The notes under the pieces are model-generated. The model saw nothing but the letters and a program-made list of their open reading frames with translations, had not been told where the DNA came from and did not search any database. DNA of 48,124 nucleotides, taken from positions 1 to 48,124 of IMG/VR virus record IMGVR_UViG_3300014160_000003, one strand, 5' to 3'. The stretch is from a virus. Lineage: Duplodnaviria; Caudoviricetes. Every line of letters starts with the position of its first letter. Within the stretch, counting starts at the first letter, position 1. The position numbers and the translations under genes were made by a program. Below are positions 4,780 to 42,209 of this stretch, piece by piece.

Positions 4780-4955
4780 ATCGCCGTTGCCGGGCCAGAT
4801 CCGGATGTGGTAGACCATCGCCGTGGCCGGCGTTGATCGATCGCGCATCGCCGGCGGCGGCGTGCGGATCCGGTATCGCCGGAAGCGGCGTCGGGTGCCG
4901 GCGCGGCTCGCCGTTTCCGACGACGACGGCCGAACGCGCCGTTTCCGGCGAGGAC
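4780..4955. repeat. Array of six degenerate palindromes (A)TCGCC-N6-GGCG, ~30-bp period
   Basis: Units start at about 4780, 4817, 4847, 4875, 4907, 4935; similar to arrays at 36105-36295 and 34776-34856. Confidence 0.8.
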
Positions 4956-4964
4956 GCCGGCGGA

Positions 4965-5894
4965 TCAAGCCGCGCTGCCGCTCGCAGGCACGTACGGAAA
5001 CCCGACGTAGCTTCCGCCGCTCTGGTCAATCGGAAACGCTCCGGAGACGTAAAAGGTGTCGACGCCCACGGTCGGGGCGAACGGCAGCGGCGAGTAAAGC
5101 TGAATGCGGTTGTACTGCACCCCGTCGACCGTGATGGTGGAGTTGGCCGCTATGGCGCTCCAGCAGCCCTCCGCCGTGCCCCCGGTGCCGCGGTTGAAGA
5201 CGACGTAGCCTCCCACCAGCGTGCCGCCTCCGATGATCGTGGTGCCGGAGGGGTACGTCACGATCCCGATCAGGACCGTTGGCCCGCTGCCGGCGCAAAC
5301 GTTGAGCTGCGGGACGTAGGAGAAACCGGCTGGAGGCGTCGCCGCCTTGAATCCAGCCAGCGTATTCGTCGCCTCGATCACGTTATTGGGAACGCTCTGA
5401 TCCGCGGCAGACAGGAAGCTCTCGACGGTAAATTTGATCGATCCGCGCGCAATGGAGATCCGCTGAATCCACCCGCCGAACAGTTCGGCGCACCCGAAGG
5501 TGTCCGCGTCGCCCGGCGTGGGCATAAAACACGTCCATGCGCGGAATTTGGCGTTGTCGAAGAAGCCCGCGCGCGCCAGCTCGTACGGCGTGCCCGTGGT
5601 ACTGGAGATCGACGGACCGCCCGGCACAGCCTTCGGGGTCCACGTGACGTCGAGCGGCGACACCTCGAGCCCGACTTTGCTCTCCACCTGGCCGCGCGAG
5701 ATGACGGTGGGCAGAAACGTCCCCATCGCGGACCACAGGAGCGGTCCGTTGTAGTCTGTCAGCCAGAAGGAGCGCGGATCTTCCGCCTCCCCAATGAGGT
5801 AGAGCGTCGCGAGGGTAAGCTGGCGGTTGGCGTGCAGCCAGGCCACCACCGCGGCGGTGCTGTCGGTGAGGTTGCCGGCCAGGACGGTGCGCAT
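4965..5894 (-). CDS. DUF2163-like baseplate hub protein
   Basis: G.FDNA motif, C-terminal YVGFPYVP, position between DUF2460-like and NlpC/P60 genes. Confidence 0.75.
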   Translation of the reverse strand: MRTVLAGNLTDSTAAVVAWLHANRQLTLATLYLIGEAEDPRSFWLTDYNGPLLWSAMGTFLPTVISRGQVESKVGLEVSPLDVTWTPKAVPGGPSISSTTGTPYELARAGFFDNAKFRAWTCFMPTPGDADTFGCAELFGGWIQRISIARGSIKFTVESFLSAADQSVPNNVIEATNTLAGFKAATPPAGFSYVPQLNVCAGSGPTVLIGIVTYPSGTTIIGGGTLVGGYVVFNRGTGGTAEGCWSAIAANSTITVDGVQYNRIQLYSPLPFAPTVGVDTFYVSGAFPIDQSGGSYVGFPYVPASGSAA

Positions 5895-5929
5895 AAGTAC
5901 GGTCTAATTAGGGCCTAGTTGGGTACTGG

Positions 5930-6667
5930 TCAGACCAGGCCCACGCGGCTCGACATGAGCTTCAGCACGTCGGATTTCTGCGAATTCTCGCCGCCGAAGG
6001 TCCAGAGAAATGACATGAACTTTTCAAAATCCAGTTTGTCTGTTTCGAAGACCGCGCGGAAATAAAAGCCAAACTGCGCCGTGACGGGTGCCGCCGGCGC
6101 TTCGGTTCCCCACTCGATGTAGAGGCCGGAGTACGAGCCTCCCGGAACCGCCAGGCCCGGCCCGGCCACCGTGTAGCTCGTGGATGACACCAGCACACCA
6201 TTGGCGTATACCACGAGTGGCGCGACGCCGGCGTTCAGATCCGTCACGTCCTCCTGGAACATGCCGGCGAAGTTCCGCTGGATCGGCGAGTAATAGTTGC
6301 CGGCGCCGTCCGTTACCACCGCCAGCTCGCAGTCGAGGTTCGGTGTAGGCGGCGTGCCCGGCGTCATGGCCGGCCCGGAGTAGTTGTCGTCGGGATCGCA
6401 AAACAGGAAGTCGTCGAAGCGCCCCTGGCGCGCGAGGAAGAAGCCCATCATCGTCTGTAGGTCCGTGTACTTCACCGGCGGCACCAGGCGCGATGGATCG
6501 TTCCACATCCACTGGTAGAGCAGCTGCCAGTGCCATATTGGGTTTTGCGCCTGCGCCACGCGCACAGTGTGGAGCGCCGGACCAGTCTGAACGATGGAAG
6601 AGAACTCGGGTGACTTGACGCAGGAAAAGCCGAGGCCGGGGATGGAGGGGAAGACGGCGTTGCTCAT
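5930..6667 (-). CDS. DUF2460-like distal tail protein
   Basis: FP..PGL, MGFFLARQGRFDDFLF.DP and VTAQFGFYFRAVF motifs; directly after tape measure. Confidence 0.8.
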   Translation of the reverse strand: MSNAVFPSIPGLGFSCVKSPEFSSIVQTGPALHTVRVAQAQNPIWHWQLLYQWMWNDPSRLVPPVKYTDLQTMMGFFLARQGRFDDFLFCDPDDNYSGPAMTPGTPPTPNLDCELAVVTDGAGNYYSPIQRNFAGMFQEDVTDLNAGVAPLVVYANGVLVSSTSYTVAGPGLAVPGGSYSGLYIEWGTEAPAAPVTAQFGFYFRAVFETDKLDFEKFMSFLWTFGGENSQKSDVLKLMSSRVGLV

Positions 6668-9480: not shown

Positions 9481-9787
9481 ATTGTTGGCAGAGTTCTTGC
9501 ACTTGCTTGGGGAGACTGGAGAAAGGGCTGGCGGCCATGTCGGCTATGGCATGTTCTGTGGATGTCAATTTCTGGCGCTTCGCCGGCACCGCGCCGAGGC
9601 AGTGCGCGATACGGCGCAGCGAGACGTGAGCGGGTGGCGAGTCGCCCCAGGCTTCGAACGCCTCGATGGCGACGGGGAATGGAAGATCCCCGACCTGCTC
9701 GTAGCTCCAGCCGGTCGCGGTGATGATCCCCCAGCGGATCTCTGGTATGTTTAGCTCGCCGCCGGAGCCGCGGCGGCAGATTCCCCC
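9473..9787 (-). CDS. Tail assembly chaperone -1 frameshift extension (gpGT-like)
   Basis: Start-less open frame ELNIPEIRWGIITATGWSYEQVGDLPFP...QQYA*, entered by -1 slip at GGGGGAA (9787-9781). Confidence 0.75.
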   Translation of the reverse strand, partial: GGICRRGSGGELNIPEIRWGIITATGWSYEQVGDLPFPVAIEAFEAWGDSPPAHVSLRRIAHCLGAVPAKRQKLTSTEHAIADMAASPFSSLPKQVQELCQQYA

Positions 9788-10164: not shown

Positions 10165-10172
10165 GGACAGTC

Positions 10173-10925: not shown

Positions 10926-10994
10926 AGAAATAGCCTCCTTTTGGCTGTTGAAGATCCCCGCACTTTGGGGCGATCTGTTGTGAAATTCGAAGGT

Positions 10995-17705: not shown

Positions 17706-17848
17706 GGTGGACTCCTGGCTGGAAGATTTCGGAGCGCCGTGCGGGCGCACTTCGGCCCGAGGGCCGGTCAAGTCTTGTTGACCACGGTCGCGGCTACCGT
17801 GAATTACCGTCGATTACCGCGGTTTTCCACGGCGCGCGACCTGGTTGC

Positions 17849-17912
17849 ATCGCCTGGGACGGCGAGTGGATCCGCCCGGCGTCCGTCGCCATTTCTGTCG
17901 ACGTCGGCCGAG
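17849..17912. repeat. Two-unit copy of the palindromic array
   Basis: ATCGCCTGGGACGGCGAG-TGGATCCG...GTCGCCATTTCTGTCGACGTCGGCCGA. Confidence 0.6.
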
Positions 17913-25311: not shown

Positions 25312-25339
25312 AGCCGCCCGGAAACGGGCGGCTTTTTTT
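25312..25339 (+). terminator. Rho-independent terminator
   Basis: AGCCGCCCG-GAAA-CGGGCGGCT followed by T-run. Confidence 0.9.
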
Positions 25340-26150
25340 ATGCATTTGCATTCACTTTGCCCGCCCGTTTCTCTGTCAGGTCTGCGAACGTCCGGCCGTC
25401 GCCGGCCAGCACTGCGCGCTTCCCGCTAAATTCCTGCCAGCGCTTGATGACCACATCGCAGTATCTCGGGTCCAACTCCACCACGCGTGCCTGGCGGTCG
25501 TTCTTGTGACACGCGATGATCGTGGTGCCGGAGCCGCCGAATGGGTCCAGTACGGTCTCGCCCGGCTTGCTGCTGTTTTTCAGCGCGCGTTCGACGAGTT
25601 CTACCGGCTTCATGGTCGGATGCTCCAGGTTTGCCATAGGCCTCTTAATGGCCCAGACGTCGCCCTGGTCGCGGTCGCCGCACCAGAAGTGTTGCGCGCC
25701 CTCGCGCCAGCCATATAGGATCGGCTCATACATGCGCTGGTAGTCGGATCGGCCCAGCGTAAAGTGGTGCTTAGCCCAAATGACAAACGTTGACCAGTGG
25801 CCACCGGCGGCAGCGAACGCGGAGAACAGCGTGTGCAGCTCCGAACTCGACATGCAGACGTAGACCGCGCCCTTTGTGACCGTCAGGATGTTACTGCAGG
25901 CCGCCTCAAGGAACTCGCGGAACTTCTCGCCCAGGCTGTCGTTACCGATCTTCAGCTTCTTGGCCGTCTTGCCCTCGTACGCCACGTTGTACGGCGGATC
26001 GGTGAACGCCATCGCCGCCTCGCCGCCGTCCAGCACCTTCTGGACGCTCCCCAGATCCGTCGCGTCGCCGCAGAGCAGCCGGTGCTGCCCCTGGACCGGC
26101 GCGGTGAACGGCTTGTGGCACTTCGTGCACGTGTGCTTCTTCTCAGCCAC
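25338..26150 (-). CDS. DNA methyltransferase, beta class (DPPY, likely N6-adenine) with N-terminal CxxC
   Basis: HRLLCGD, FTDPPY, HPTMKP, LDPFGGSGTT, ELDPRYCDV; GTG start at MAEKKHTCTKC. Confidence 0.9.
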   Translation of the reverse strand: MAEKKHTCTKCHKPFTAPVQGQHRLLCGDATDLGSVQKVLDGGEAAMAFTDPPYNVAYEGKTAKKLKIGNDSLGEKFREFLEAACSNILTVTKGAVYVCMSSSELHTLFSAFAAAGGHWSTFVIWAKHHFTLGRSDYQRMYEPILYGWREGAQHFWCGDRDQGDVWAIKRPMANLEHPTMKPVELVERALKNSSKPGETVLDPFGGSGTTIIACHKNDRQARVVELDPRYCDVVIKRWQEFSGKRAVLAGDGRTFADLTEKRAGKVNANA

Positions 26151-27255
26151 GCGCTGCCCCCTTTCGGAGCTTCCGCGCGACCGTGGCAGCGTCGGACTTT
26201 GCGCCGCCCATATTGTGGAGCGGATTGCCCTTGGCGAAGCGATGCATGCCCTTCGGCGCCGGCGGAGCATCCGCGCTGGTGCCTCGGGCGGCCGCCACGG
26301 CTTCGAACGACTGTCCGGTCGCCTCGAGGACGGCTTTGGCTGTGCCCAGCGGGCCCATGCGCATGCGGCGCACGATGACGTCGCAGTAGCCCGGCGACAA
26401 TTTGATGCCGTAGCCGGAGCGCCCCAGGATCTGCGCGGCTGCCATCGTGGTGCCGCTTCCCATGAACGGATCATAGACCACATCACCCGGGTCGGAGAAG
26501 CCTTTGATGAAGAACTCGACCAGTGCGCGCGGAAAGGGAGCGGAGTGCGAACCTTGTGTGGACTCGGTCTTGGCATCGATCACATTCGAAGGCCTGGCCA
26601 AGCCTCCGAACCTGCCATCATTCCCCGACGCACCGGGTTTGCCGGCGGCCGGACCGCGAGCGCCACTGCCAAGCAGCCCGCTTCCGGATGTCGCCTTCGG
26701 ATTGTTCGGGCTGTAGCCGAAACAGTCCTCCGACTTGTGGCTCACCGCCTCCGGCCGGAATTTGATTTCCTGCTGGCGGCAAAAGTGAAACACCGGCTCC
26801 CAAGCGTTCTTAAAGCGATTTTGCCAGCCGCCCGGTACACCGTTGTCGGTCTTGCGCCAACAGAACTCGTCCACGAAGCGCCAGCCCCACTGGCGCTTGT
26901 GCGCCAGGACCAGGTCCTTGACGTAGAGGCTGCGCTCGCCTTCGCCCGCGTGCTCCTTGATGTTCAGAAAGTACGAGCCGTCCGGCGCCAGCACGGCTTG
27001 GATTGCCGCAGCCACCGCGCGGAACCACTCGACGTATTTCTCCTCCGGGATCGGCTTGAAGCCGCTCGAGGCGTCGTACTCCCGCTGGCTGGCATAGGGC
27101 GGGGAAGTGATCACTACGTTGGCTTTGGCTGCGCCAAACAGGCGCGCTGTGGCACCCGGGTCGCGCGAGTCGCCGCACAGTAGCCGGTGGCGGAACTGGA
27201 CCGGCCCCGTGGCCGATTTGCCACAATGCGCGCAGGTTACGGTCGCCTCAGACAT
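26143..27255 (-). CDS. DNA methyltransferase, beta class (SPPY, likely N4-cytosine) with N-terminal CxxC
   Basis: HRLLCGDS, ITSPPY, HSAPFP, YDPFMGSGTT. Confidence 0.9.
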   Translation of the reverse strand: MSEATVTCAHCGKSATGPVQFRHRLLCGDSRDPGATARLFGAAKANVVITSPPYASQREYDASSGFKPIPEEKYVEWFRAVAAAIQAVLAPDGSYFLNIKEHAGEGERSLYVKDLVLAHKRQWGWRFVDEFCWRKTDNGVPGGWQNRFKNAWEPVFHFCRQQEIKFRPEAVSHKSEDCFGYSPNNPKATSGSGLLGSGARGPAAGKPGASGNDGRFGGLARPSNVIDAKTESTQGSHSAPFPRALVEFFIKGFSDPGDVVYDPFMGSGTTMAAAQILGRSGYGIKLSPGYCDVIVRRMRMGPLGTAKAVLEATGQSFEAVAAARGTSADAPPAPKGMHRFAKGNPLHNMGGAKSDAATVARKLRKGAARG

Positions 27256-27823
27256 CGTTGTGGTGGTGGCAGCGCGGGCACTCCACGTATGCGCCCAGCA
27301 GCCAGAGATCGCCCAGCACGGTGACCGGCACCTCGGGAACCTCAGGGACGCTATCTTCGTCCGTGAGTCCCCCCCCCCCCTCGGAGAAGGCTTCTATCTC
27401 ATTCGGATCGAAGCCGGTCAGCCCCAGGTCGAAGTCCAGCGCTTTCAGATCCTCAAACTCAAGCGCCAGCACTGGAAGATCGAACTCCGCCTCCTGACTG
27501 GCCCGGTTGTCGGCGATGCGGTACGCCTTGGCCTGCGCCGGCGTGAGATCCAGTGCAACGTGGACCGGCACCTCGGGCAGACCCAGCTTCTGGGCGGCCA
27601 GCAGGCGCGTATGGCCCACAACAATGACGCCCTTCGCGTCGACCACAATCGGCTGGCGGAAGCCAAACTCCTGGATCGACGCCGCCACCTTGTCGATGGC
27701 CGACTGCGGGATCTTGCGCGGGTTGCGCGCGTACGGGATCGGCTTCGACGTGGGCCAGGCCTCACATTGCAGGCCGGGCGGAAGCGCCGGTTGCTGTGCT
27801 TGTGGCTGCGATTTCTTCTTCAT
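27248..27823 (-). CDS. ParB/sulfiredoxin N-terminal domain protein with C-terminal CxxC
   Basis: PYARNPR, SIQEFGFRQPIVVD, GHTRLLAA, YRIADNR; ends GDLWLLGAYVECPRCHHHNDV. Confidence 0.9.
   Translation of the reverse strand: MKKKSQPQAQQPALPPGLQCEAWPTSKPIPYARNPRKIPQSAIDKVAASIQEFGFRQPIVVDAKGVIVVGHTRLLAAQKLGLPEVPVHVALDLTPAQAKAYRIADNRASQEAEFDLPVLALEFEDLKALDFDLGLTGFDPNEIEAFSEGGGGLTDEDSVPEVPEVPVTVLGDLWLLGAYVECPRCHHHNDV
27369..27380 (-). repeat. G12 homopolymer in ParB-like gene
   Basis: Twelve consecutive C on the + strand. Confidence 0.95.
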
Positions 27824-29882: not shown

Positions 29883-30263
29883 ATGAAATTCTTTTCAGAT
29901 GGCGATTCAACTTCTGGATCTTTGTTTTTGATCCTCTCGCCTCGCGAACGCCAGGTGCTTGCGCTCGTGTCTTCCGGGTGCAGCAATAAGCAGATAGCAT
30001 ATCGGCTGTCAATAGCACTCTCCACAGTCAAGGGCTACATCGCCGCACTGGCTGAAGGCCTCGGCACAGCCAACCGCGTCGAGCTTTGCCTGTGGGCCAT
30101 CGCGCATCCCGCTGCGACCGAAGGGCGCGCGGTGAAGACCAACTCTCACGGTGGGAAGCTGCCAGGTGATTTCAATTTCGGGCCCCGATCGCCAGAGATG
30201 ACGATGGCGGATCCCCGCGTCAGAGCTGGCGAGGGGCGATCGCGAGAATTGGGAATACCATAG
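29883..30263 (+). CDS. LuxR-family HTH regulator (stand-alone)
   Basis: LSPRERQVLALVSSGCSNKQIAYRLSIALSTVKGYI...NRVEL. Confidence 0.85.
   Translation: MKFFSDGDSTSGSLFLILSPRERQVLALVSSGCSNKQIAYRLSIALSTVKGYIAALAEGLGTANRVELCLWAIAHPAATEGRAVKTNSHGGKLPGDFNFGPRSPEMTMADPRVRAGEGRSRELGIP
30188..30256. repeat. Copy of the palindromic array at end of LuxR gene
   Basis: ATCGCCAGAGATGACGAT-GGCGGATCCC-CGCGTCAGAGCTGGCGAG. Confidence 0.6.
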
Positions 30264-30420: not shown

Positions 30421-30477
30421 CGGCAGTTGGCTGCCGGGGGGTGCGGCAGTTGGCTGCCGGACCGGGTGCGGCAGTTG
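30421..30477. repeat. Tandem palindromic iteron/operator repeats CGGCAG-TTGG-CTGCCG
   Basis: Two full and one partial copy; same motif recurs inside initiator gene. Confidence 0.85.
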
Positions 30478-30850: not shown

Positions 30851-32005
30851 ATGAGCAGCCCGTCGAGGCGGCCTCCCTCCAAAATTTCCTATCCGTTCGT
30901 GCCACTCCCTGAAGACTTCGGCGAAAAGCTCGCCGGCGCCGTGCAGCCGGCCACCGTGCTGGCCGTGCTACTGATCGCACAGCGAAGTTGGCGGCAACGG
31001 TCGGGATCGCAGCCAGGCGTGTGCGCCTACCCAATCGCGCAGTTGGCCGAGACCATGCGCGTGAGCGAGCGCCAGGCCCGCTACGCCATCCAGGAAGCCG
31101 CCAAGTGCGGCCTCTGCGAGGTGGAGAGCGTAAACACGAAGGACGGAAAGGAGAATCGCTATCGCTGGGTGCAGCGTTTGCCGGACCTCGAGAAAAAGCC
31201 ACTCCGTACAGTGACGCGCGCCGCGGAGGATACCACTCCGGCAGAGCCGGAACCCGTCGCGGCAAAACTGGATTGCCCGCTCAAGATCGCGTGCCCGGTT
31301 GACACGCTGTATGAGATCGACGGGGTTCTTACCAACGATGTGCGGGAAATAAAGGACTTAGCAGGGGGTGTGCGGCAGTTGGCTGCCGGACCCCTCCCCG
31401 CTTCGAAAAATGGAGACGCCCAACAGCACCAGGTGCCTGCCAATATAACCGAAGCCGGGGCGCCGGCGCAAGGGTGTGTGGATAAAAATTCTCGATGCTG
31501 TAAATCCAACGACTTAAGCGTTGGGGTGCGGCAGCCAGTTGCCGCACCCCCCCTCGATCCGCTCCGCGATGTGCTCCGTGAGATCTTCATGGACCGCGAG
31601 CGCTATCCGCGGCTGTATATGGGCGCGCTGCCCGACGATCAGAAGCTCGGCGCGGTGGTCAGGGAACTCGGCAACGCGTCCCTGGACCAATTCGCGGCCG
31701 TCCTCATCCGGCGCGGCCAGAGAATCGTTAAGGATGGCCACTACGGCCTCCTGGTGCCGTTCGCTCAGGACGCCGCGCGCTCGGCGCCGGCGCGCAAGCC
31801 GCCCACAGAGGCGCGGCCGGAGGCGGAAACGGCAGAGGGGCTGGCGATCGACATGCAATTCGTCGCCGAGTTTCCGCAGCACGCCGACGCCGCCAGCTCT
31901 CGCGCACGCATAGATGCGGCCAAGCGCGAGGCGCCTGGCCTCTACCTGCGCGCGCAAGAGCTGACCGCCAGCCGCGCGCCGAAGGCAGCTGGAGGTGCGA
32001 AGTGA
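30851..32005 (+). CDS. Replication initiator-like HTH protein
   Basis: YPIAQLAETMRVSERQARYAIQE HTH; internal repeats; GGAGG RBS. Confidence 0.7.
   Translation: MSSPSRRPPSKISYPFVPLPEDFGEKLAGAVQPATVLAVLLIAQRSWRQRSGSQPGVCAYPIAQLAETMRVSERQARYAIQEAAKCGLCEVESVNTKDGKENRYRWVQRLPDLEKKPLRTVTRAAEDTTPAEPEPVAAKLDCPLKIACPVDTLYEIDGVLTNDVREIKDLAGGVRQLAAGPLPASKNGDAQQHQVPANITEAGAPAQGCVDKNSRCCKSNDLSVGVRQPVAAPPLDPLRDVLREIFMDRERYPRLYMGALPDDQKLGAVVRELGNASLDQFAAVLIRRGQRIVKDGHYGLLVPFAQDAARSAPARKPPTEARPEAETAEGLAIDMQFVAEFPQHADAASSRARIDAAKREAPGLYLRAQELTASRAPKAAGGAK
31363..31550. repeat. Intragenic iteron-like palindromes (candidate origin)
   Basis: GGGGTGTGCGGCAGTTGGCTGCCGGACC and GGGGTGCGGCAGCCAGTTGCCGCACCCC flanking AT-richer DNA. 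Confidence 0.7.
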
Positions 32006-34339: not shown

Positions 34340-34875
34340 GATTCCGCCGCCGCTTCGCGCCATACGTCGAGGAAGGGTCCAAGACGCACACCATCCGCGG
34401 GATTCGGAAGCGTCCGTTCCGCGTGGGCGATCGCTGTGATTGCTACGTCGATCCGCGCCAGAAGACCATGCGGCTGCTCGGGCGATGGCCGTGCGTGGGC
34501 GTTGGGAACGTCCGCATTCTTATCGTGCGCAATTTCTACGGCTGGTTCGGCCGCGTCTGGATCGACGGCGAGGAGCTGACGCCCGACGAGTGTAACGCGC
34601 TGGCCTGGCACGACGGCTTTCGTAGCACCACGCGGGACGAAGCCTTCGACGAGATGATCCACTATTGGATCAAGCTGCATCCGCCGCCGGCCGGGATGCG
34701 CACGCCGCGGTACGACTTCCATGGCCAGATCGTGCTCTGGCGCTACTCAGAGAAGACCGCCGGCTGCGCGGCCAGGCCGGAAGCGGCGCGTTCGGCCGAC
34801 GCCGGCGGAAACGGCGAGCCGCGTCGGCGCCCGACGCTTGATCCGGCGATGGCCGCGACGGAGGCCGCGTGCTAA
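34330..34875 (+). CDS. ASCH/PUA-like domain protein
   Basis: GF..RF.PYVEEGSKTHTIR....F.VGD...LAWHDGF; C-terminal tail encoded by repeat array. Confidence 0.7.
   Translation: MLVGFRRRFAPYVEEGSKTHTIRGIRKRPFRVGDRCDCYVDPRQKTMRLLGRWPCVGVGNVRILIVRNFYGWFGRVWIDGEELTPDECNALAWHDGFRSTTRDEAFDEMIHYWIKLHPPPAGMRTPRYDFHGQIVLWRYSEKTAGCAARPEAARSADAGGNGEPRRRPTLDPAMAATEAAC
34776..34856. repeat. Inverted three-unit copy of the palindromic array
   Basis: Reverse complement aligns by eye with 4875-4952. Confidence 0.8.
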
Positions 34876-35099
34876 TCCGCCTAACCACGTGGGAAGCCAT
34901 CCGCGAACAGTTCACGGACGACGAGAAGGACGCGCTCAACGCCGTCGCCACGGGTGAGACGATCTGCCCGCGCGGCCTGGTGATCGACGAAGACAAACTG
35001 GCGCCGGAGCTGCGCGACAAGCTGCTGCGGGCGATGATCGCGGTGACGACGGACGCCGGGCTGAGGAGGAAGCTGCCGGAGGATCAGGAGGTAAAATGA
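34869..35099 (+). CDS. Hypothetical protein
   Basis: GGAGG RBS, GTG start, 76 aa. Confidence 0.65.
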   Translation: MLIRLTTWEAIREQFTDDEKDALNAVATGETICPRGLVIDEDKLAPELRDKLLRAMIAVTTDAGLRRKLPEDQEVK

Positions 35100-35570
35100 T
35101 CCCATGAATACGCGACGATCCTGCCGCTGGGTTGCAGACGCGCCGATCGGCACGACGGACCGCGCATAGGAATCGAACTGCTCTGCCACTAGCAGGCGTT
35201 TCATACTTTGCAGTCTACTCTGTAGCCCGTCGGCCTGTCTTCCCTGCCCCACGTTGAGAAACTCCTCCAGAATGTCCGTCAGCGCCCGCTTAGCGCGCCG
35301 CATCGCTGTGCTGCAGGCGCAGCCAACGGGGCACTCCAAATGCCGCGTCGTGCGCCAGAGCACGTCGCGTGCGCTGCACACCAGATGCCAGTCAAGCTGA
35401 ACCTGCCGGGCGGCTTTCGCGCAGGTGGCGCGAATGAATAGCGCGGAAGGACGTGGCACGCGACCGACGCGCCAGGGCTTGGGAACGAAGTCGATTTGAA
35501 AGGATGAGCCGAAATAGAGGATGGGCTGGTGGTGGTCAGTAGTTTGGACTGCGAGAGTTTGATTTGACAT
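34881..35570 (-). CDS. Hypothetical protein, 3' end runs antisense into the preceding gene
   Basis: Only long ORF covering 35100-35570; follows the Dam-like MTase. Confidence 0.4.
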   Translation of the reverse strand: MSNQTLAVQTTDHHQPILYFGSSFQIDFVPKPWRVGRVPRPSALFIRATCAKAARQVQLDWHLVCSARDVLWRTTRHLECPVGCACSTAMRRAKRALTDILEEFLNVGQGRQADGLQSRLQSMKRLLVAEQFDSYARSVVPIGASATQRQDRRVFMGSFYLLILRQLPPQPGVRRHRDHRPQQLVAQLRRQFVFVDHQAARADRLTRGDGVERVLLVVRELFADGFPRG

Positions 35571-35618: not shown

Positions 35619-36455
35619 TTAACAGCGTACCTCAGCCATCGCCGCCAGCAGCGCGTGCCGCTCCAACTCCGGCATCCGCTCGAGGCGCGCGACCCAGCGC
35701 TTCTTCCTCCGATTGATTTTCTCGCGCTCCCTGAAGCCACGCCCGAGGTAGCGATAGTCGTGGAGTTCGGTGGGCCGCGGGAAGTTGAACCACAGCCACT
35801 CCGTCTTTTGCTTGCCGGCCCGCGTCATCGCGTCGTACGTGACGCTGTTCCAGCCGGCCAGCGCCTCGGCATACATCTCCGACCAGTATCCGGAGATCAT
35901 CGCGGCGCAAGGCAGATCCTGGAGCACTCGCAATAAACGCTGGTGCTCGGCGTCGGCCATCTCGCAGCGATAGAGCCGGCGGCCCGAGCGCGTGGCCATC
36001 ACGTATGGCGGATCGCAGTACACGAGCTCGTTGCCGGCGAAGGGATAACACGCCAGGAAGTCGATCCCGTTCCCGTGCACGAAGTGGAAGCGCGGGAGTA
36101 CTCCATCGCCAGTTCCGCCGCTGGAGGCCTGTATCGCCGCCCCTGGCGAGTGGTGATGACGGGCATCGCCCGAGGCGGCGTGCGGATCCGCCATCGCCGT
36201 TTCGCGCGAACGGTACGCCTCGCCGTTTTTGCCGGCGTCGGCCGAACGCGACGGATCTGGCGAGGGAACCGGCGGCATCGTCACTTTGGGCGCGCCCGGA
36301 TCTATGTCGATGCCAATATTGAGCGCCGCCGGTCGCTTCAGCCGCATGATCGCGCCGGCGCCAAGGAACGGCTCGATGTAGGTCTGGTGGGGCGGCATCA
36401 GGTTGATGATCGTGTGATAAACGCCTGGCGCGTTCTTTCCGCCTGGATACGCCAT
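35619..36455 (-). CDS. Dam-like (D12 class) N6-adenine DNA methyltransferase with repeat-encoded insert
   Basis: YPGGK, YIEPFLGAGA, GIDID, VYCDPPY, MISGY, TEWLW. Confidence 0.9.
   Translation of the reverse strand: MAYPGGKNAPGVYHTIINLMPPHQTYIEPFLGAGAIMRLKRPAALNIGIDIDPGAPKVTMPPVPSPDPSRSADAGKNGEAYRSRETAMADPHAASGDARHHHSPGAAIQASSGGTGDGVLPRFHFVHGNGIDFLACYPFAGNELVYCDPPYVMATRSGRRLYRCEMADAEHQRLLRVLQDLPCAAMISGYWSEMYAEALAGWNSVTYDAMTRAGKQKTEWLWFNFPRPTELHDYRYLGRGFREREKINRRKKRWVARLERMPELERHALLAAMAEVRC
35911..35932 (-). repeat. 22-bp inverted repeat, left copy
   Basis: TGCGAGTGCTCCAGGATCTGCC on - strand, identical to 41593-41614 on +. Confidence 0.9.
36105..36295. repeat. Seven-unit palindromic array inside the MTase gene
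   Basis: Units at about 36105, 36133, 36165, 36193, 36219, 36247, 36277. Confidence 0.85.
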
Positions 36456-36720
36456 GTCTGCAGCATCGCTGGTTTCGGCGTGGGTGTCAAGTGGCCAGCA
36501 CGACCTGGTTGCTTCGCTAGTCCTGGCGATGCGAGCTGCGAGAATGGGAGTCGGAGACTACGTACTACCACCTCCGCGCCTGCATTTTTTTTCTGGAATG
36601 GGCCTGAATGTGGACTTATGTGCCTGCCAAAGCCGTCCCGCGCGGCAATCGAGCGGACCCGCATGTCCGAATTAGCGCGTAGCGAATGGCCGTTTTATTG
36701 GGGTTTTGCGGTGATCTGGC

Positions 36721-36817
36721 GTGCATAAAACGTTCGTTCGTGCACTCTAAAAGCGCTTCAAATCTAGGTTTTGGTTGCAACACGTTTTTCGCCCTTTTTC
36801 AAGGACGTTTTGTGCAC
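36721..36817. other. Candidate res-like site at 3' end of serine recombinase
   Basis: GTGCATAAAACGT ... ACGTTTTGTGCAC inverted pair in AT-rich DNA. Confidence 0.45.
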
Positions 36818-37468
36818 ACCTTTGGCGGGGGAGCCGAGCGCCTTCCTTAACGACGATTGCGGCACGCCCATTTCCTTCTCGATCTTCCTCCAACTCATGC
36901 CGCCTTTCCTCAATTCGCGTGCGCGCTGGCGATCGAAAATTCGCGGCGGCCGGCCGCCCACGTGTCCCTGCTTTCGCGCCCGCACCAGGCCGGCCTTGGT
37001 TCGCTCGGAAATGCGAATGCGCTCTTGCTTCGCCACCCAGGCTAGGACCGCCATCAGCAGTTCGCCGGCAGGTCCGGTGGTTCGAAAGAACGGCTCGGTG
37101 TAGCTCTCGAACTGGATGCCGTAGTCGTGGAGCATCTTCACGTGCGCGAATGTGTCCAGCACGCCCTGCCTGGTAAATCGGTCGAGCGCCCATACCAACA
37201 CGACCTCGAACTTCCGCCGGCTTGAGTCCGCAAACATCAATTGCAGCGCGTCGCGGTCGGCGTGCTTGCCGGTCTCGTGGTCGATGTACTCGACGGCTGT
37301 CCAGCCCTGCGCCTTCGCGTAGCGACGCAGATCGAGGAGCTGGTTCTCCGTGTCCTGGTGCTTGGACTGCCAAGCGGCGAGCTTTTCCTTATATTTTGCG
37401 AGTGCTTCGCCGGCTTTGCGGACCGGTTTCGCCTTGGTGCTGACCCGAGCGTAGATGGCGCAGTTCAT
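36764..37468 (-). CDS. Small serine recombinase (resolvase/invertase family)
   Basis: AIYARVST, Q...L, VWALDRFTR, ISERTKAGL.RAR.QG..GGRP, C-terminal HTH; 234 aa from MNCAIY. Confidence 0.93.
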   Translation of the reverse strand: MNCAIYARVSTKAKPVRKAGEALAKYKEKLAAWQSKHQDTENQLLDLRRYAKAQGWTAVEYIDHETGKHADRDALQLMFADSSRRKFEVVLVWALDRFTRQGVLDTFAHVKMLHDYGIQFESYTEPFFRTTGPAGELLMAVLAWVAKQERIRISERTKAGLVRARKQGHVGGRPPRIFDRQRARELRKGGMSWRKIEKEMGVPQSSLRKALGSPAKGVHKTSLKKGEKRVATKT

Positions 37469-37564
37469 GAGATTGGAGTCCTCGGGCGGGCGCCCGAATC
37501 GCCGGCGGGTTCGCGGGCGAGTGGGGGAGCGCCCGCGCGTATACCAGTGTACGCCGCCGGCGTC

Positions 37565-37652
37565 CTCGCCGAGTCCGTCGCGGCTAGCTAGCCACGCTGG
37601 AAACGGCGATCGGCGCCCGGCGGCCATCGCCATTCGCGGCGTTGGGATCCGG
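37565..37652. repeat. Three-unit palindromic array upstream of recombinase
   Basis: CTCGCCGAGTCCGTCG, CACGCTGGAAACGGCGAT, ATCGCCATTCGCGGCGTTGGGATCC. Confidence 0.65.
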
Positions 37653-37820
37653 CTACGCCTTCACCGGCGCCGGCGCCGGCAGCTTGCTGTGTCCGTTGGT
37701 CGGCGCGAGCTGCTGGATGGTCGGCACCGGCTCCCGGTAGAGCCGGTATCTCCGGACGGATGGATCTGCGGATGCGCGGCGCCGTGCGACGACGCGCGTC
37801 GTCTTCTTTTTGATGTTCAT
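37653..37820 (-). CDS. Small basic hypothetical protein (55 aa)
   Basis: GAGAGG RBS; MNIKKKTTRVVARRR... Confidence 0.5.
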   Translation of the reverse strand: MNIKKKTTRVVARRRASADPSVRRYRLYREPVPTIQQLAPTNGHSKLPAPAPVKA

Positions 37821-37901
37821 CGTGTTCCTCTCTTGTTGGTAAAATACACATAGAGCCTACCACTTGCATGAGAGTGGTCATATCGTCAAGATTGGGCTTC
37901 C

Positions 37902-37947
37902 AAAAACCGATTCGGCGGGGCAGCAAAACCAAACCGAATCGGTTTTT
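37902..37947. terminator. 14-bp inverted repeat, possible bidirectional terminator or operator
   Basis: AAAAACCGATTCGG ... CCGAATCGGTTTTT. Confidence 0.55.
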
Positions 37948-37954
37948 TATTGCG

Positions 37955-38086
37955 CTAGTTCGCCCTCTTTAGCGTCTCCATTTTCGTTCGAGCCGCCATC
38001 GTCGCTGCCGCCTCGTGGCACGCCGGGCATTCGGGTTCCGAGGGTTGAACTTCGCGACCGCATTTGGGACAAAGCCAGTTGAACAT
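37955..38086 (-). CDS. 43-aa zinc-ribbon protein
   Basis: MFNWLCPKCGREVQPSEPECPACHE; AGGA RBS. Confidence 0.6.
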   Translation of the reverse strand: MFNWLCPKCGREVQPSEPECPACHEAAATMAARTKMETLKRAN

Positions 38087-38092
38087 GGGGTC

Positions 38093-38281
38093 CTACTTGG
38101 CGGCGCGCTTTCTCGCACTTGCCTGCTTGTTCCTGCCTGCCACCGGACGCTTGGCCTTATGATCCTTCCATCGCGCGCGTGCTGCCTTGCGCGCGCTGGC
38201 ACTGCGTTCTTCTGCGGAGAGGGAGGCGGCGCGCGCGTCTCCGCCCATTTTTCCGATAACTGCGGTGTCAATCATCGTCAT
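38093..38281 (-). CDS. Small basic putative DNA-binding regulator
   Basis: IGKMGGDARAASLSAEERSASARKAARARW; ATG 7 nt after a -10 box. Confidence 0.75.
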   Translation of the reverse strand: MTMIDTAVIGKMGGDARAASLSAEERSASARKAARARWKDHKAKRPVAGRNKQASARKRAAK

Positions 38282-38288
38282 GTCGAGA

Positions 38289-38318
38289 AGTATAGTGCCA
38301 AGCGGCTTGGCCTGTCAA
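38289..38318 (-). promoter_or_regulatory. Leftward sigma70 promoter with palindromic operator
   Basis: TTGACA-18-TATACT; spacer contains GCCAAGC-G-GCTTGGC. Confidence 0.8.
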
Positions 38319-38362
38319 TAGCTGCGTGTCCGCTACGGACGAAAAGCGGGCCAAAATAGTGC

Positions 38363-38391
38363 TTGACTTATGCGTAGCTACTCCGCATAAT
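38363..38391 (+). promoter_or_regulatory. Rightward sigma70 promoter with overlapping inverted repeat
   Basis: TTGACT-17-CATAAT; TTATGCG/CGCATAA inverted repeat. Confidence 0.8.
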
Positions 38392-38529
38392 ACAAATATG
38401 CCAAGCCGCTACGGCCCACGGAAGACAAGCACCCGGCCATGGCACAGCAGCGATCGCTGGCGGATCTGGCGACGATGCTGCTGGAGACGCGCAGCCTGCG
38501 GTTTTGCCCGCAGGCGTGAAAGGAGGATC

Positions 38530-38796
38530 ATGCCGCAAAATCCAAAGCAGAAATACTACGAATGCCCAAACGGCCACGTCAACCTCGACGATGATGTACT
38601 GCACTGCCGGGTTGGCGCCTGCCAGGAGCGGATCTGCCCGGACTGCGGGCCGGAGCTGGCCTGGGACCTGGAGGCCTGTCCGAAGCACATGAACGACGCG
38701 GTCTACGCGCTGCAACGCGAGCGCGACCGCTATGCCAGGCGCCTGGCCACGATCACCGGCGCGCTGAAGGAAATTCAGGAGGACTGCCATGCGTGA
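38530..38796 (+). CDS. Cys-rich (zinc-binding) hypothetical protein
   Basis: AAGGAGG RBS; ECPNGH...C...C...CPDC...CPKH. Confidence 0.7.
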   Translation: MPQNPKQKYYECPNGHVNLDDDVLHCRVGACQERICPDCGPELAWDLEACPKHMNDAVYALQRERDRYARRLATITGALKEIQEDCHA

Positions 38797-38887
38797 GGAG
38801 ATAATCTACGGATCGATCACCGCCGGCGCGCTGGGCGTGTTTGGGGCCCTGCTACTGGCCTCGCTGGTCTGGGGAACGTGCCTCTGA
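38789..38887 (+). CDS. 32-aa membrane peptide
   Basis: AGGAGG RBS; MREEIIYGSITAGALGVFGALLLASLVWGTCL. Confidence 0.5.
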   Translation: MREEIIYGSITAGALGVFGALLLASLVWGTCL

Positions 38888-38981
38888 CTTTTGCCGGTGT
38901 CAGCCGGCATGGATGAAACGCGAGAGGAGGCCGCGCGCAAACGGCCTCCCCTCCACAACCGACAACTGAGAAAGGAACCAG

Positions 38982-40148
38982 ATGTCATCTCAAAGTATAG
39001 TCTTCAGACCGGCGGTGAAGTACGACGCCAAAGGCCGCGTGGCGCTCATCGGGCCTGGCGGCAGCGGCAAGTCGCTGACCGCCCTCAAACTGGGCCGGCT
39101 GCTGGCCGGCCCGAACGGCAAGATCGCCGCCATCGACACAGAGCACGGCAGCTTGTCGAAGTACGCAGATCTGTTCAAGTTCGACGTGATCGAACTGTCC
39201 AGCTACAGCGCCGAGAATTTTCTCAACTCCCTGCACGCCGCGGAGGCCGCCGGCTACGCGGTCTTCTGCGTGGACTCGCTCAGCCACTTCTGGATGGGCA
39301 AGGACGGCGCGCTGGAGTTTGTCGACGAGAAGAAAGCGCGCGCGCGCGACCAGATGGAAGGCTGGAAGGAGTGGCGGCCGCACGAGCGCGAGATGATCGA
39401 CGCCATGATCGCATCGCCCTGCCACATCATCGCGACGATGCGGACCAAAAACGAGTACCTCAACGAGGAGTACACCGACCAGACCGGCAAAAAGAAAACC
39501 CGGCGGATCAAGGTAGGCCTGGCTCCCGTGCAGCGCGACGGCCTGGAGTACGAGTTTGACCTGGTCGGTCTGATGGACGATAACAACAGCATGATTATCG
39601 ACAAGACCCGCTGCTCGGCGTACGCCGGCAAAGTGCTAAAGAAACCCGGCGACAAAGAGTTCGCCGCGTTCGCGGACTGGCTGAAGGGCGAGGCGTTGCC
39701 CGCGCCAGTGGCACCTCCCGCGCCGGTAGCAGTAGCGCCCGCGCCGGCTGCCGGAGGAGGCGGCAGGAGCAACGGCGTCCCACACCCGCCGATCAGCATG
39801 CCGCCCCAGGCGGCGGCTGCCTCGGCCAGCGCGCCGGCGGCGGTGCAGGCGCTCTGGGCGCGCATGACGAATTGCGCGACCATCCACCAGGTCATCGTCG
39901 AGCTGCGCGACGGCCTGCTCGCCACGATCGACATGCACGGCGCCGACGAGTACGACCGCATCTTGGCGCACAATGGCGTAACCGAGCCGCGCGCCATCCG
40001 CAAGTTCGGCGTAGCGCGCGCGGTGGTACGCGAGCTTTGGGCCGCACTCCAGGATGCCAAGGCGCTGCAAGCCTTCGCGCCGGCAGACGACGACGAGATT
40101 CCGATGCAGCCGCCGGCCACGGCGGCGCAGGAAGGGAGGGCCGCGTAA
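38982..40148 (+). CDS. AAA_24 / Sak4-like recombination ATPase
   Basis: GPGGSGKS, IDTEHGS, VDSLSHFW, IIATMRTK, GLAPVQRDGLEYEFD. Confidence 0.88.
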   Translation: MSSQSIVFRPAVKYDAKGRVALIGPGGSGKSLTALKLGRLLAGPNGKIAAIDTEHGSLSKYADLFKFDVIELSSYSAENFLNSLHAAEAAGYAVFCVDSLSHFWMGKDGALEFVDEKKARARDQMEGWKEWRPHEREMIDAMIASPCHIIATMRTKNEYLNEEYTDQTGKKKTRRIKVGLAPVQRDGLEYEFDLVGLMDDNNSMIIDKTRCSAYAGKVLKKPGDKEFAAFADWLKGEALPAPVAPPAPVAVAPAPAAGGGGRSNGVPHPPISMPPQAAAASASAPAAVQALWARMTNCATIHQVIVELRDGLLATIDMHGADEYDRILAHNGVTEPRAIRKFGVARAVVRELWAALQDAKALQAFAPADDDEIPMQPPATAAQEGRAA

Positions 40149-40149
40149 C

Positions 40150-40776
40150 ATGGCAACGCTATCCCTGTACGGCGTGGTCGAGGAGCTGCAAGCGCTCCTC
40201 GACACGTACGAGATGTGCGAAACGGACCAGGCCAAAGCCGAGTGCTGGCAGCAGATCGAGCAGTACGTCCAACTCGAAATCAAGAAGGTGGACGGGATCG
40301 CCGGCTACCTCGGCCGCTGCGAGAATGAGGCCGCGTTCATGAAATCGGAGTCGCAGCGCCTGGCTGCTCTGGCCAAGGCCTGGTCCGCGCGCCAGGAGAG
40401 GCTGGAGCAATATTGCGCGCGCGTGATCGAAGGCCTCGGCCGCGACGCCAAGGGAAAGTGGAGGAAGCTGGAGGGCAAGCTGCACACGCTGGGCTTGCGG
40501 GAAGGCTCGCCCAGCGTCGAGATCACGGACGAGGCGGCGGTGCCGGCGGAGTACAAAACGCTGACCATCACGCTGCCGGCGACGGCGTGGGAGGCATTTA
40601 CGCACGCGATGGTGTATACACCCACCATGGAGGCCGTCTTCGACGATCTGAAGTTGGCCATCACGAAGAGCGATTGCCAGGTCGCCAAGTGCGAGATTAA
40701 GAAGGCGATCAAGGGCGGGGCAACGGTCGACGGCGCCGACGTAACCATCGGCGAGCCGACGTTGACGCGGCGGTGA
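40150..40776 (+). CDS. Siphovirus Gp157-like protein
   Basis: SLY.....L, KKVDGIA, E..RL, SVEITDEAAVPAEY, EIKKAIKGGATVDGA. Confidence 0.85.
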   Translation: MATLSLYGVVEELQALLDTYEMCETDQAKAECWQQIEQYVQLEIKKVDGIAGYLGRCENEAAFMKSESQRLAALAKAWSARQERLEQYCARVIEGLGRDAKGKWRKLEGKLHTLGLREGSPSVEITDEAAVPAEYKTLTITLPATAWEAFTHAMVYTPTMEAVFDDLKLAITKSDCQVAKCEIKKAIKGGATVDGADVTIGEPTLTRR

Positions 40777-41006
40777 GCAAGGACCCGACCGCGCCGCTGC
40801 TGCCACTGGCGTACGAGACCGCAGTCAGCCACCGGGGCAAGCCGCTAGTCATCGAGTTGCACGCCGGCTACATGCACATCGAGCCGAAAGGCTCGCGCCA
40901 CGGCTACGACGTGGCGTACCAGACCATCTACGAGCGCGCGGCGGCGGCCGCCGCGGAGCGGTCGCGCGCAGAACGCGCGATCGCCACTCGCCGGAGGCGG
41001 CGATGA
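40773..41006 (+). CDS. Hypothetical protein
   Basis: GTGA overlap, 77 aa. Confidence 0.65.
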   Translation: MSKDPTAPLLPLAYETAVSHRGKPLVIELHAGYMHIEPKGSRHGYDVAYQTIYERAAAAAAERSRAERAIATRRRRR

Positions 41007-41239
41007 AGGGAGATCCAAATGTCCACACTATTGGGGAGGCTTATCCTGTGGTGGTGGCGGCGCCAGCAACGCCGCCGCGACCGCCGGATCGCACGCCGGA
41101 ACGCCAGCCGCCAAACCCGCTGGTGGCGTTGCTGGTAGTCGCGCTGCTCTGGCTGCTGGCCTGGGCAGCGCAGCCGCTGTCGGACGACCAGGCGCAGGCC
41201 TGCGAGGACGATCCGGCGTGCGAGATGGTCCTGCGATGA
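41003..41239 (+). CDS. Small membrane protein
   Basis: ATGA overlap; one TM segment. Confidence 0.6.
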   Translation: MKGDPNVHTIGEAYPVVVAAPATPPRPPDRTPERQPPNPLVALLVVALLWLLAWAAQPLSDDQAQACEDDPACEMVLR

Positions 41240-41532
41240 AAGAAGCCGATCTCGCCAGCCGCGCCAACGATGAGATCGCCCGGCTTGGCGATCGCTTCGA
41301 GGTCCCGCTGACACTGGGCCTCTATGCCGCTGTTTACGTGGCGGCGGAGCTTCGGACCGCCTTGCGGCCTCCTCGCAAGGCCGGCCCGAGCGCCAAGCTG
41401 GCTGGCAAGGTAATCGATCGAATTGCGGACGCGCTGGATGCTGCGGGCTATCATGCGCACGCGGAGATGGCGCGGGCTGGCGACGTCGGCTGCCTGCGCC
41501 TGGTCCGGAAGCCCGCAGCTCCCCACGCCTAG
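41236..41532 (+). CDS. Hypothetical protein
   Basis: ATGA overlap; MKEADLASRAN. Confidence 0.6.
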   Translation: MKEADLASRANDEIARLGDRFEVPLTLGLYAAVYVAAELRTALRPPRKAGPSAKLAGKVIDRIADALDAAGYHAHAEMARAGDVGCLRLVRKPAAPHA

Positions 41533-41568
41533 CTCTCCACACCTGAAGCTGCGATGCCACCAGGTTGC

Positions 41569-41586
41569 GCGCAAGTATACTTGCGC
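41569..41586. repeat. Perfect 18-bp palindrome
   Basis: GCGCAAGTATACTTGCGC. Confidence 0.9.
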
Positions 41587-41895
41587 ACTTGCTGCGAGTG
41601 CTCCAGGATCTGCCGTGCATGGTGATTGTCTCGGGGTACTGGTCCGAGTTGTACGCCACGGAGCTGGCCGGCTGGCACACGACCACCTTTCGCGCCATGA
41701 CGCGCGGAGGCAAGCCGCGGACCGAATGGCTCTGGTATAACTTCGAGCCGCCGGCCGAGCTACACGACTATCGCTATTTGGGGAGTGGATTCCGGGAGCG
41801 CGAGCGAATCAAGCGCAAAAAGAAGCGCTGGGTGTCGCGCCTGGAGAGAATGCCGGAGTTGGAGCGCCAGGCGTTGCTGGCCGCAATCTCGACGG
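41581..41895 (+). pseudogene. 5'-truncated paralogue (C-terminal ~105 aa) of the Dam-like MTase
   Basis: LLRVLQDLPC...SGYWSE...TEWLW...ELHDYRYLG...RLERMPELERQALLAA matches 35619-35940; motif I and DPPY absent. Confidence 0.85.
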
Positions 41896-41960
41896 TCCAG
41901 CGATCGCTGGCATCGCCGTCCGATGCGAGTGGATCCAAAAACGGCGAGGGAGTACTCGGG

Positions 41961-42209
41961 CTATCCGAGCCGCGCGATGCGCGCCATTCTGCGGGCTTGG
42001 ATCTTCCGCCGAACGGCGTCTCTGGCCTCGGCCACGCCGGGCAGCGGATTGGCGCCGCACCAGCGCAGCGTGGCATACAGCCAACGGTAGCCGACGCCGG
42101 AGGTAGGCTCCGGCGCGGGCATCCCGTGGATCACGGCAGCGAACAGCCACATGGCCACCGCGCCGGCGGCGGCCGGATGGGCCTGAATGAGTTGGATGAG
42201 TTGGATCAT
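41961..42209 (-). CDS. Putative holin-like membrane protein
   Basis: Hydrophobic N-terminus, MPAP....GYRWLY motif, basic tail; last gene of lysis cluster. Confidence 0.5.
   Translation of the reverse strand: MIQLIQLIQAHPAAAGAVAMWLFAAVIHGMPAPEPTSGVGYRWLYATLRWCGANPLPGVAEARDAVRRKIQARRMARIARLG

Follow-up and report, generated by a model that had tools for sequence, protein, structure and literature searches.

A phage-borne variant of the Upf31 module: probable operator arrays around a Dam-like methylase gene and a predicted single-base target beside each operator

Plasmids of the IncP-1β group carry clustered inverted repeats (Thorsted 1998, as cited by Elg et al. 2025, PMC11997246). In Elg et al. 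(2025), the 20-bp inverted repeat is called unexplained and IncP-1β-specific, and the Upf31 protein family is described as almost confined to these plasmids (PMC11997246; preprint 10.1101/2024.02.05.579024); a later preprint still refers to upf31 as IncP-1β-only (10.1101/2025.08.13.669769). Elg et al. (PMC11997246) report that the plasmid protein represses its own expression, that three point mutants in its C-terminal part lose repression and, with it, the plasmid cost, and that upf31 is costly and quickly lost. The stretch analysed here (the window) is the whole 48,124-bp virus record IMGVR_UViG_3300014160_000003, a single contig of 63 % GC whose terminase, portal, protease, tail, lysin, replication and recombination genes indicate a tailed phage; the public sequencing runs best matching it are wetland and peat metagenomes, with no RNA data set among those listed. 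It contains dispersed arrays of palindromic units and a gene for a Upf31-like, Dam-fold methylase, and the units are very probably operators for this type of protein.

A sequence-only reading of the window had reported degenerate palindromic units at eight loci, all of which were found where it had placed them. The arrays and single operators, to which no strand is assigned, are the following:

4779–4953: dispersed array, situated between two tail genes and made up of five units and a half-site; holds ATCGAT/CGATCG, GGATCC, GCCGGC and CGGCCG
17848–17903: two-unit dispersed array upstream of the head protease gene; GGATCC, CGGCCG
30187–30234: two-unit dispersed array at the 3′ end of a LuxR-type helix-turn-helix open reading frame (ORF); GGGCCC, GGATCC, CGATCG
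34776–34851: copy of the 4.8-kb and in-gene arrays, inverted and more degenerate than these
36104–36295: seven-unit array, in frame inside the methylase gene; linkers AGGCCT, GGATCC and CGGCCG, with AGTACT adjoining the first unit
36512–36531: second operator upstream of the methylase gene
37564–37672: array of four units, upstream of the resolvase gene; two GCTAGC, GGCGCC, GGATCC
41911–41936: operator plus GGATCC, downstream of a fragment of a second copy of the methylase gene

Single matches to the motif are weak evidence: TCGCC-N6-GGCGA, with at most one mismatch, occurs 26 times in the window against 10.2 ± 2.8 in 10 order-5 Markov sequences, and codon periodicity raises other spacers too, those of 0, 3, 9 and 12 being somewhat high (26, 15, 16 and 20 matches). 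Clustering is decisive for the reality of the arrays. The window has three clusters of at least four units, against a mean of 0.07 (maximum 1) in 30 order-5 Markov sequences. Contigs from other public runs are identical to the window across three arrays (34426–35416, 35679–36915 and 37449–38291), and since these independent contigs show no differences, the three are not assembly artefacts. The arrays are also homologous, linkers included, as had been proposed (4857–4957 and 34768–34868 share 79 % over 101 nt), and their blocks have spread by copying within the replicon. The unit itself needed correction: the reported core is there, but its full length is 20 bp, with the consensus CATCGYC-N6-GRCGATG (TCG-N10-CGA, hereafter TCG-type) and an A/T-leaning, non-palindromic spacer. 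Units lie 26–32 bp apart with even values favoured, that is, one operator plus a 6–12-bp linker; the period therefore tracks linker length and not three fixed helical turns, and the suggested likeness to partition sites found no support. In a related locus (L229:60–330) there are five near-identical tandem 44-bp units (operator, CTGCAG and GTCGAC) within a upf31-like open frame, probably a recent expansion through slippage or unequal exchange.

It is highly improbable that the repeats are a structured RNA or a hairpin element like the repetitive extragenic palindromic (REP) sequences. Two of five arrays fold better than their shuffles (z −2.7 and −2.6), but the other three give z values of −0.6 to −1.8, no curated RNA family matched at Rfam gathering scores, and the loopless 6-bp palindromes and the fixed place in a promoter spacer described below point to recognition of double-stranded DNA. 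With folding this weak and no family in Rfam, the idea of a host REP family or a miniature inverted-repeat transposable element (MITE) was not borne out.

The gene at the centre of the arrays, and the elements of it on which the argument rests, are:

35619–36455, minus strand: Upf31-like Dam-fold amino-methyltransferase gene, 278 amino acids (Pfam PF02086, D12)
36003–36014, minus strand: DPPY catalytic motif, residues 148–151, kept in 145 of 145 aligned homologues
35625–35735, minus strand: C-terminal basic helices, predicted recognition helix, residues 241–277; R242 and E245 track operator class
36456–36490, minus strand: methylase promoter, TTGACA (36490–36485), 17 nt, GATGCT (36467–36462), 6 nt, ATG

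The protein is identical to Upf31 of pBP136 at 117 of 277 residues (42 %, E 6e-69) over its full length, including the C-terminal domain. Its S-adenosylmethionine (SAM) motif, E-x-(F/H)-x-G, is kept in 136 of 145 homologues and precedes DPPY (alpha order), and the fold is Dam-like. When residues 1–227 were used for fold searches, the best hits were EcoDam (Z 16.4, root-mean-square deviation 5.3, 161 aligned), DpnM (16.2, 3.1, 154), T4Dam (15.5) and M.CbeI (15.3); the score against the Dam model TIGR00571 was 32.5 bits, under the cut-off of 114.85. The AlphaFold2 model has a mean pLDDT (predicted local distance difference test) of 79, with residues 70–115 below 50. The in-gene array falls in the loop that houses the target-recognition domain (TRD) in Dam. 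AlphaFold leaves this loop disordered, and it spans 17–130 residues in the 50 of 120 homologues parsed by pattern; the window protein has no folded TRD.

The repeats had been placed between genes or at gene 3′ ends. Two of the loci are different: the 36105–36295 array is in frame inside the methylase gene, and the 36465 unit is the operator of the methylase promoter. This operator (36464–36483) fills the spacer between the −35 and −10 boxes, with CTGCAG at 36458–36463. The comparison set comprised 172 full-length homologous genes, annotated records included, giving 162 distinct proteins and 142 clusters at 85 %. Upstream DNA was long enough in 138 homologues, and in 68 of these the unit follows a −35 box (TTGA(C/T)N or TTGCAC) after one base, with a fixed offset from the box for 63 of 67 matches. 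The −35 box of 43 loci lies 40–42 nt from a conserved Tyr codon, which would imply a leaderless mRNA, and that of the window methylase is probably leaderless as well. TCG-type sites reach 4.3, 2.4 and 2.9 per kb upstream of, within and downstream of the homologous genes, against about 0.4 further away; units are 6–10 times denser in the gene or within 300 bp of it than further out. Searches that started from the DNA were less specific. The promoter-plus-operator pattern had the gene directly downstream in 10 of 120 matches, the others being mostly chance (0 of 14 for a pattern shifted by one base), and a two-unit pattern in viral contigs gave 120 loci, mostly codon-frame chance, four of them with a match to the hidden Markov model of the family (three convincing), although 40 of these loci had only 300-nt flanks, so that the scan is no measure of co-occurrence.

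Together with the covariation described next and the published autorepression of Upf31, this promoter position ties the arrays to the methylase, as the sequence-only reading had supposed. That the repeats are operators for a Upf31-type protein we regard as very probable, and so is autorepression of the window methylase, its operator placement being seen in the sequence and repression itself extrapolated from the plasmid protein.

Ten loci chosen by their DNA use TAG-N10-CTA (TAG-type) in place of TCG-N10-CGA. All ten encode T242 and Q245, whereas TCG-type loci encode R242 in 52 of 52 and E245 in 51 of 52. Seven R..Q proteins lean to TCG sites, so residue 242 looks decisive; contacts of arginine with guanine and of threonine with thymine are textbook ones. 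For a blind test, 80 new viral loci were fetched by protein, yielding 73 full genes, 15 of them already seen, and 46 new clusters. Around 15 T..Q loci there were 82 TAG-type and no TCG-type sites, around 23 R..E loci 75 TCG-type and three TAG-type, and around eight other or unparsed loci 11 TCG-type and one TAG-type. A strict scan for distant clusters in 110 loci found them in 10; 11 clusters agree in class with the gene at the locus, and none is of the opposite class. The lone distant cluster in 1.15 Mb of control loci belongs to a provirus carrying the gene outside the fetched flank. On a quick tree of 51 rows drawn from 191 proteins, from which the code residues had been taken out, the T label changes five times, at least four changes being forced by starred branches; of the five lineages, L411 is without a site. 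At the level of sequence it is thus confirmed that two residues of the C-terminal helix predict operator class, R..E with TCG-N10-CGA and T..Q with TAG-N10-CTA. Very likely a dimer reads the half-sites through this basic helix, R242 with CG and T242 with AG; a dimer is assumed because of site symmetry and of the model of Elg et al. themselves.

Two further operator classes were seen. In L001, L392, L522 and L531, TCGGC-N6-GCCGA goes with the helix xRQ(D/N)LKRQ, and L119 and L460, from P2-like enterobacterial phages, have ACYGYC-N6-RRCRGT (SEN5 has N242/Y245). KorB is a sliding clamp. If the C-terminal helix reads DNA, the cost to the plasmid, which Elg et al. put down to KorB binding, may reflect blocking of KorB sliding by array-bound Upf31 (R751, our L541, and pBP136).

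The DNA outside the operators is constrained at one base. Counting outward, the fifth base (+5) is A or C on 635 of 664 non-promoter sides in 82 TCG-type loci and on 184 of 208 in 22 TAG-type loci, against 56 % for distant chance matches, and no other flank position is as constrained. Among loci having at least four sides, A or C exceeds 70 % in 74 of 76 (TCG-type) and 18 of 22 (TAG-type). In the window, 24 units were registered by hand, two isolated sites and four mis-registered candidates being set aside, and the rule holds on 47 of their 48 sides; it holds on 44 of 46 when units are clustered automatically, blind to the rule. On the −35 side of the window promoter, +5 is a C opposite the G of TTGACA, and repression may include a mark in the promoter. 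A and C carry the exocyclic amine that amino-methylases modify, and G and T are excluded, which fits amine methylation; a D12/DPPY enzyme making N4-methylcytosine (m4C) is on record (M.CbeI, PMC3425538). The suggestion that the arrays are methylase targets is hence supported in a changed form, since the predicted target is the base five nucleotides outside the unit and not the unit itself. That this base is methylated, and the site over it thereby shielded, is our prediction, which we hold with moderate confidence.

In both operator classes, the +5 base tends to lie inside a restriction-type palindrome. A 6-bp palindrome occurs in 95 of 163 linkers, where letter shuffles give 44.4 ± 5.4 and flanking DNA gives 22.9, and covers +5 on 372 sides against 94.8 ± 8.8 (TCG-type) and on 119 against 24.2 ± 4.9 (TAG-type) in column shuffles, about four times above controls; half of the units have an adjoining site of this kind. 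Palindrome starts concentrate at offsets 0–4, the range that covers +5, and 4-bp cores are mostly completed to 6 bp (background 21 %), whereas their extension to 8 bp does not exceed the background (170 of 512, against 28 %). GGATCC, CGATCG, GATATC, CTCGAG, TGGCCA, CTGCAG, AGGCCT, CGGCCG, GCCGGC, CAGCTG and TGATCA are enriched, and GGTACC also in the TAG class; CGCGCG, GCGCGC, GGGCCC and GCTAGC are not. The +5 base is the bracketed letter of CTGC[A]G in 36 of 37 cases, GTCG[A]C in 11 of 12, TGG[C]CA in 41 of 42 and CAG[C]TG in 15 of 16; these letters are the bases that the cognate methylases mark.

These palindromes also bear on a plain regulatory network, in which the arrays would titrate the repressor or regulate neighbouring genes (through KorB in IncP plasmids, according to Elg et al.) and the palindromic linkers would be by-products of duplication or template switching. 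In favour are autorepression and plasmid-wide expression changes, both reported by Elg et al., the several window arrays that sit upstream of genes, and homologues borne on insertion sequences (IS), which look like pure repressors of a transposase operon. However, palindromes are equally common on lone sides and between operators (152 of 302 and 332 of 560), mostly off-centre (215 against 141) and recur beside a different operator class, while no more than 16 of 431 N6 spacers are palindromes. Template switching as their source is disfavoured by the same asymmetric spacer, the lone-side and off-centre positions and the stop at 6 bp. Furthermore, no KorB-like gene is annotated among the 70 window ORFs scanned, the lone ParB_N match belonging to a second methylase. 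We consider such a network improbable as the whole explanation.

Several of these sites are avoided in the rest of the replicon. All six GGATCC in the window lie within 983 bp of arrays, with none in the other 47 kb, where about 20 are expected. In pAKD14 (36.6 kb), CTGCAG, CTCGAG and TGGCCA occur three times each in arrays and never outside, and GTCGAC and GAGCTC are also restricted to arrays; R751 (50 kb) has six CTGCAG in arrays and none outside. In a set of 44 loci, palindromes that are avoided locally turn up 54 times next to operators, where the local rate predicts 1.0 and neutrality 11.9; the rest of the gene region, with eleven times as many positions, has 26. As a separate observation, CAGCTG is also depleted throughout the window (3 found, about 16 expected) and has no copy in the arrays.

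The account that we judge somewhat more probable than its rivals taken together is that the arrays are operator clusters whose autorepressor methylates +5, so that adjoining sites are shielded from host restriction enzymes. The Upf31-type protein would sit on the operator in the −35/−10 spacer and repress its own promoter, a dimer binding the half-sites through the C-terminal basic helix. The TRD-less Dam-like core, held at a fixed distance, would then methylate the exocyclic amine at +5, as N6-methyladenine (m6A) or m4C, and operators 26–32 bp apart would mark both strands of the linker. With moderate confidence we expect that the mark shields the site, and that sites purged elsewhere thereby survive in the arrays. 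Shielding alone would let sites drift only to the neutral level, so the four-fold excess requires selection. The most speculative step, a tentative one that we put at somewhat under even, is a selfish lock: copies that have lost the gene would make unmarked DNA, to be cut by the diverse restriction enzymes of hosts at the next transfer, the gene thus using the nucleases of its hosts as its toxin. A costly, quickly lost gene (Elg et al., PMC11997246) beside arrays of many different sites favours such a lock. A cognate nuclease was not found among the window ORFs by family match (Pfam, PHROGs) or in three neighbours (PADLOC), with unannotated ORFs downstream. Taken further, these proteins could be reprogrammable, widespread operator-guided methylases in which a helix reads the palindrome and a TRD-less core marks A or C 5 bp away, the gene strewing its phage or plasmid with polylinker-like arrays of sites protected by it alone, with toxin-free addiction through host restriction enzymes; we offer this extension as rather doubtful.

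A number of observations weigh against this account. Homologous loci share ancestry, which inflates the counts; 30 of 141 have no TCG-type site nearby, and three of 13 T..Q proteins are without a TAG site. In a loose scan, distant clusters are rarer near homologues (1.7 per 100 kb) than in controls (3.05), dispersal being patchy. R751 has G at +5 on 7 of 40 sides, and the IS-borne homologues have one operator and ignore the rule in three of four cases. An avoided site adjoins an operator in only 23 of the 44 loci, with none in the other 21, and of 263 adjacent palindromes 54 are avoided sites, close to the neutral share. Provirus G001 keeps 20 CTCGAG and 38 TGGCCA outside its arrays, avoidance is slight in both it and G002, and the window has many copies of AGGCCT, CTGCAG and GCCGGC beyond its arrays. 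Finally, conservation of +5 could reflect a binding contact or a base flipped but left unmethylated, and in Elg et al. (PMC11997246) Upf31 gave no methylation when single molecules were sequenced in real time (SMRT) and no Dam activity in a DpnI assay.

These last points are the core of a different explanation, in which the protein is a binder or reader and not a writer: it would flip or contact +5 and either shield sites by occlusion or sense host methylation and tune its promoter, such sensing being the main rival to the selfish lock. Besides the negative assays, the coincidence of +5 with positions marked by cognate methylases would be needed by a reader as well, and many homologue promoters have a palindrome directly behind the −10 box. 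The SMRT test used, according to the same source (PMC11997246), an ORF-only vector in Escherichia coli ER2796 and a motif finder; as that strain was without arrays, operator-directed marks could not appear, and the +5 prediction is untouched by it. Against a reader, the DPPY and SAM motifs are kept as nearly throughout as described above, occlusion cannot protect incoming naked DNA, and acceptance of both A and C with exclusion of G and T fits methylation of an amine. We therefore consider a pure reader rather unlikely and continue to favour methylation at +5.

The arrays might also be crossover or landing sites for a resolvase, host nuclease cuts or homologous recombination, or scars of mobile cassettes. 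Two features of the window are relevant:

36764–37465, minus strand: serine resolvase (PF00239), a neighbour that the model does not need
41593–41887, plus strand: 3′ fragment of a second upf31-like copy, 77 % over 295 nt, inverted relative to the full gene

The fragment keeps the recognition helix but not the SAM motif or DPPY, and the 41888 array follows it. Copying of array blocks within the window, this partial and inverted copy, the varied genomic contexts of upf31-like genes and the accessory inserts that adjoin arrays in R751 all suit recombination, as does an opposite-strand joint of 34837 with 36199, between the similar 34.8-kb and 36.2-kb arrays, in four of four runs compared. This joint has 37 letters on its short side and may be repeat mis-alignment, which it fits, or a real inversion. 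The window arrays showed neither terminal repeats nor target duplications, operator class follows the methylase helix and not any recombinase, and the +5 rule is left unexplained, all of which makes recombination sites very improbable as the origin of the arrays. A role for the resolvase, which had been paired with the methylase as a centre of the arrays, found no support either: homologues of the methylase adjoin transposases, glycosylases or unrelated phage or plasmid genes, adjacency not having been counted systematically, and no relatives of the resolvase were found in viral contigs.

The family extends well beyond IncP-1β, to phages, other plasmids and IS elements of many phyla. With the short homologue P0106 as query, 191 plasmids matched, 139 over at least 80 % of its length (top hit, IncP-1β upf31.0, about 50 %), as did 92 phage records, eight at full length; pAKD14, pBP136 and R751 carry the same 20-bp units as the window. 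In multi-copy IS701- and IS66-family elements of Alphaproteobacteria (L074–L103; L074:9587–12123, L092:9878–12138, L097:9879–13069), a T..Q-type upf31-like gene, with a promoter and a single operator, heads the transposase operon. It is likely a captured autorepressor of transposition, for which we found no paper. In two plasmids (L457:10001–11511, L458:10001–11511) the gene heads an operon with an annotated "8-oxoguanine DNA glycosylase", beside a QueC/PfkB cluster.

Other repeats and signals in the window belong elsewhere. A separate family of 23–28-bp repeats with the core GGCAGTTGGCTGCCG (30421–30477, 31352–31405, 31508–31561) lies upstream of and inside an O-like replication gene and may represent iterons. 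A 93-bp repeat has two tandem copies in an ORF of 168 amino acids (45075–45260) and one diverged copy in the tail region (553–645). Between 38289 and 38391 there is a divergent pair of sigma70-like promoters (11 and 10 of 12 matches), probably an early switch region. On the minus strand, 25338–27823 contains a ParB_N ORF and two overlapping N6_N4 methylase ORFs in different frames, consistent with a split or frameshifted second methylase.

The module as such was known before only from IncP-1β plasmids; new here are the two-residue recognition code, the A/C rule at +5 and the excess of 6-bp palindromes over that base. We found no literature on the code, the single-base target or the link to restriction sites, although older IncP papers may already note site clustering at the repeats. 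The view that the repeats have no described function therefore stands for their purpose, as the repeat family and its autorepression are already in print. The purpose of the IncP-1β repeats, open since 1998, becomes testable through the single-base prediction, and the absence of arrays from the published methylation test explains how it could be negative. A gene held to be plasmid-specific is recast as a large family in phages, plasmids and IS elements whose two-residue code has switched several times. Fixed-distance methylation of A or C, if true, would be an unusual way for a natural methylase to choose its target and would offer a compact tool, and the hoarding of restriction sites runs counter to the rule that mobile DNA purges them.

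Among known systems, REP/REPIN sequences, MITEs and structured RNAs are the most distant, as the window arrays have no curated family match, stable hairpin, or HUH or DDE transposase partner. Self-regulating restriction-modification (R-M) systems are closer: in M.SsoII/M.Ecl18kI, M.EcoRII and C-protein systems the methylase or controller is part of its own regulation, the methylase binding a palindromic operator over its own promoter. Unlike the window protein, M.SsoII/M.Ecl18kI and M.EcoRII keep a TRD, act on a defined site distinct from the operator, are partnered by a cognate nuclease and are not known to have dispersed arrays. R-M and toxin-antitoxin addiction modules punish loss of a protective gene, in R-M by DNA cleavage. 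The selfish lock would do likewise, except that no nuclease or toxin was found encoded in the ORFs scanned and that punishment would fall on the replicon at transfer, through host enzymes. With the alpha-class D12 enzymes of the Dam family (EcoDam, DpnM, T4Dam, M.CbeI) the window protein shares the fold and the order of SAM motif and DPPY; it differs in having a variable loop in place of a folded TRD, an added C-terminal helix and a predicted target outside the recognised sequence that can be either base, and Elg et al. (PMC11997246) report no GATC activity for Upf31. The nearest relative is the IncP-1β Upf31 module itself, with a homologous protein (42 %), a 20-bp unit both in the promoter spacer and in dispersed clusters, the +5 rule, adjoining sites and a resolvase next door. 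Elg et al. place DNA binding of Upf31 in the N-terminal domain and assign dimerisation and KorB contact to the C-terminal part, whereas the covariation found here points to the C-terminal helix as the reader. The window differs in being a phage without an annotated KorB or IncP-1β backbone, in the array inside the gene and in the probably leaderless transcript; it is thus a phage-borne variant of the Upf31 module, and not an IncP locus.

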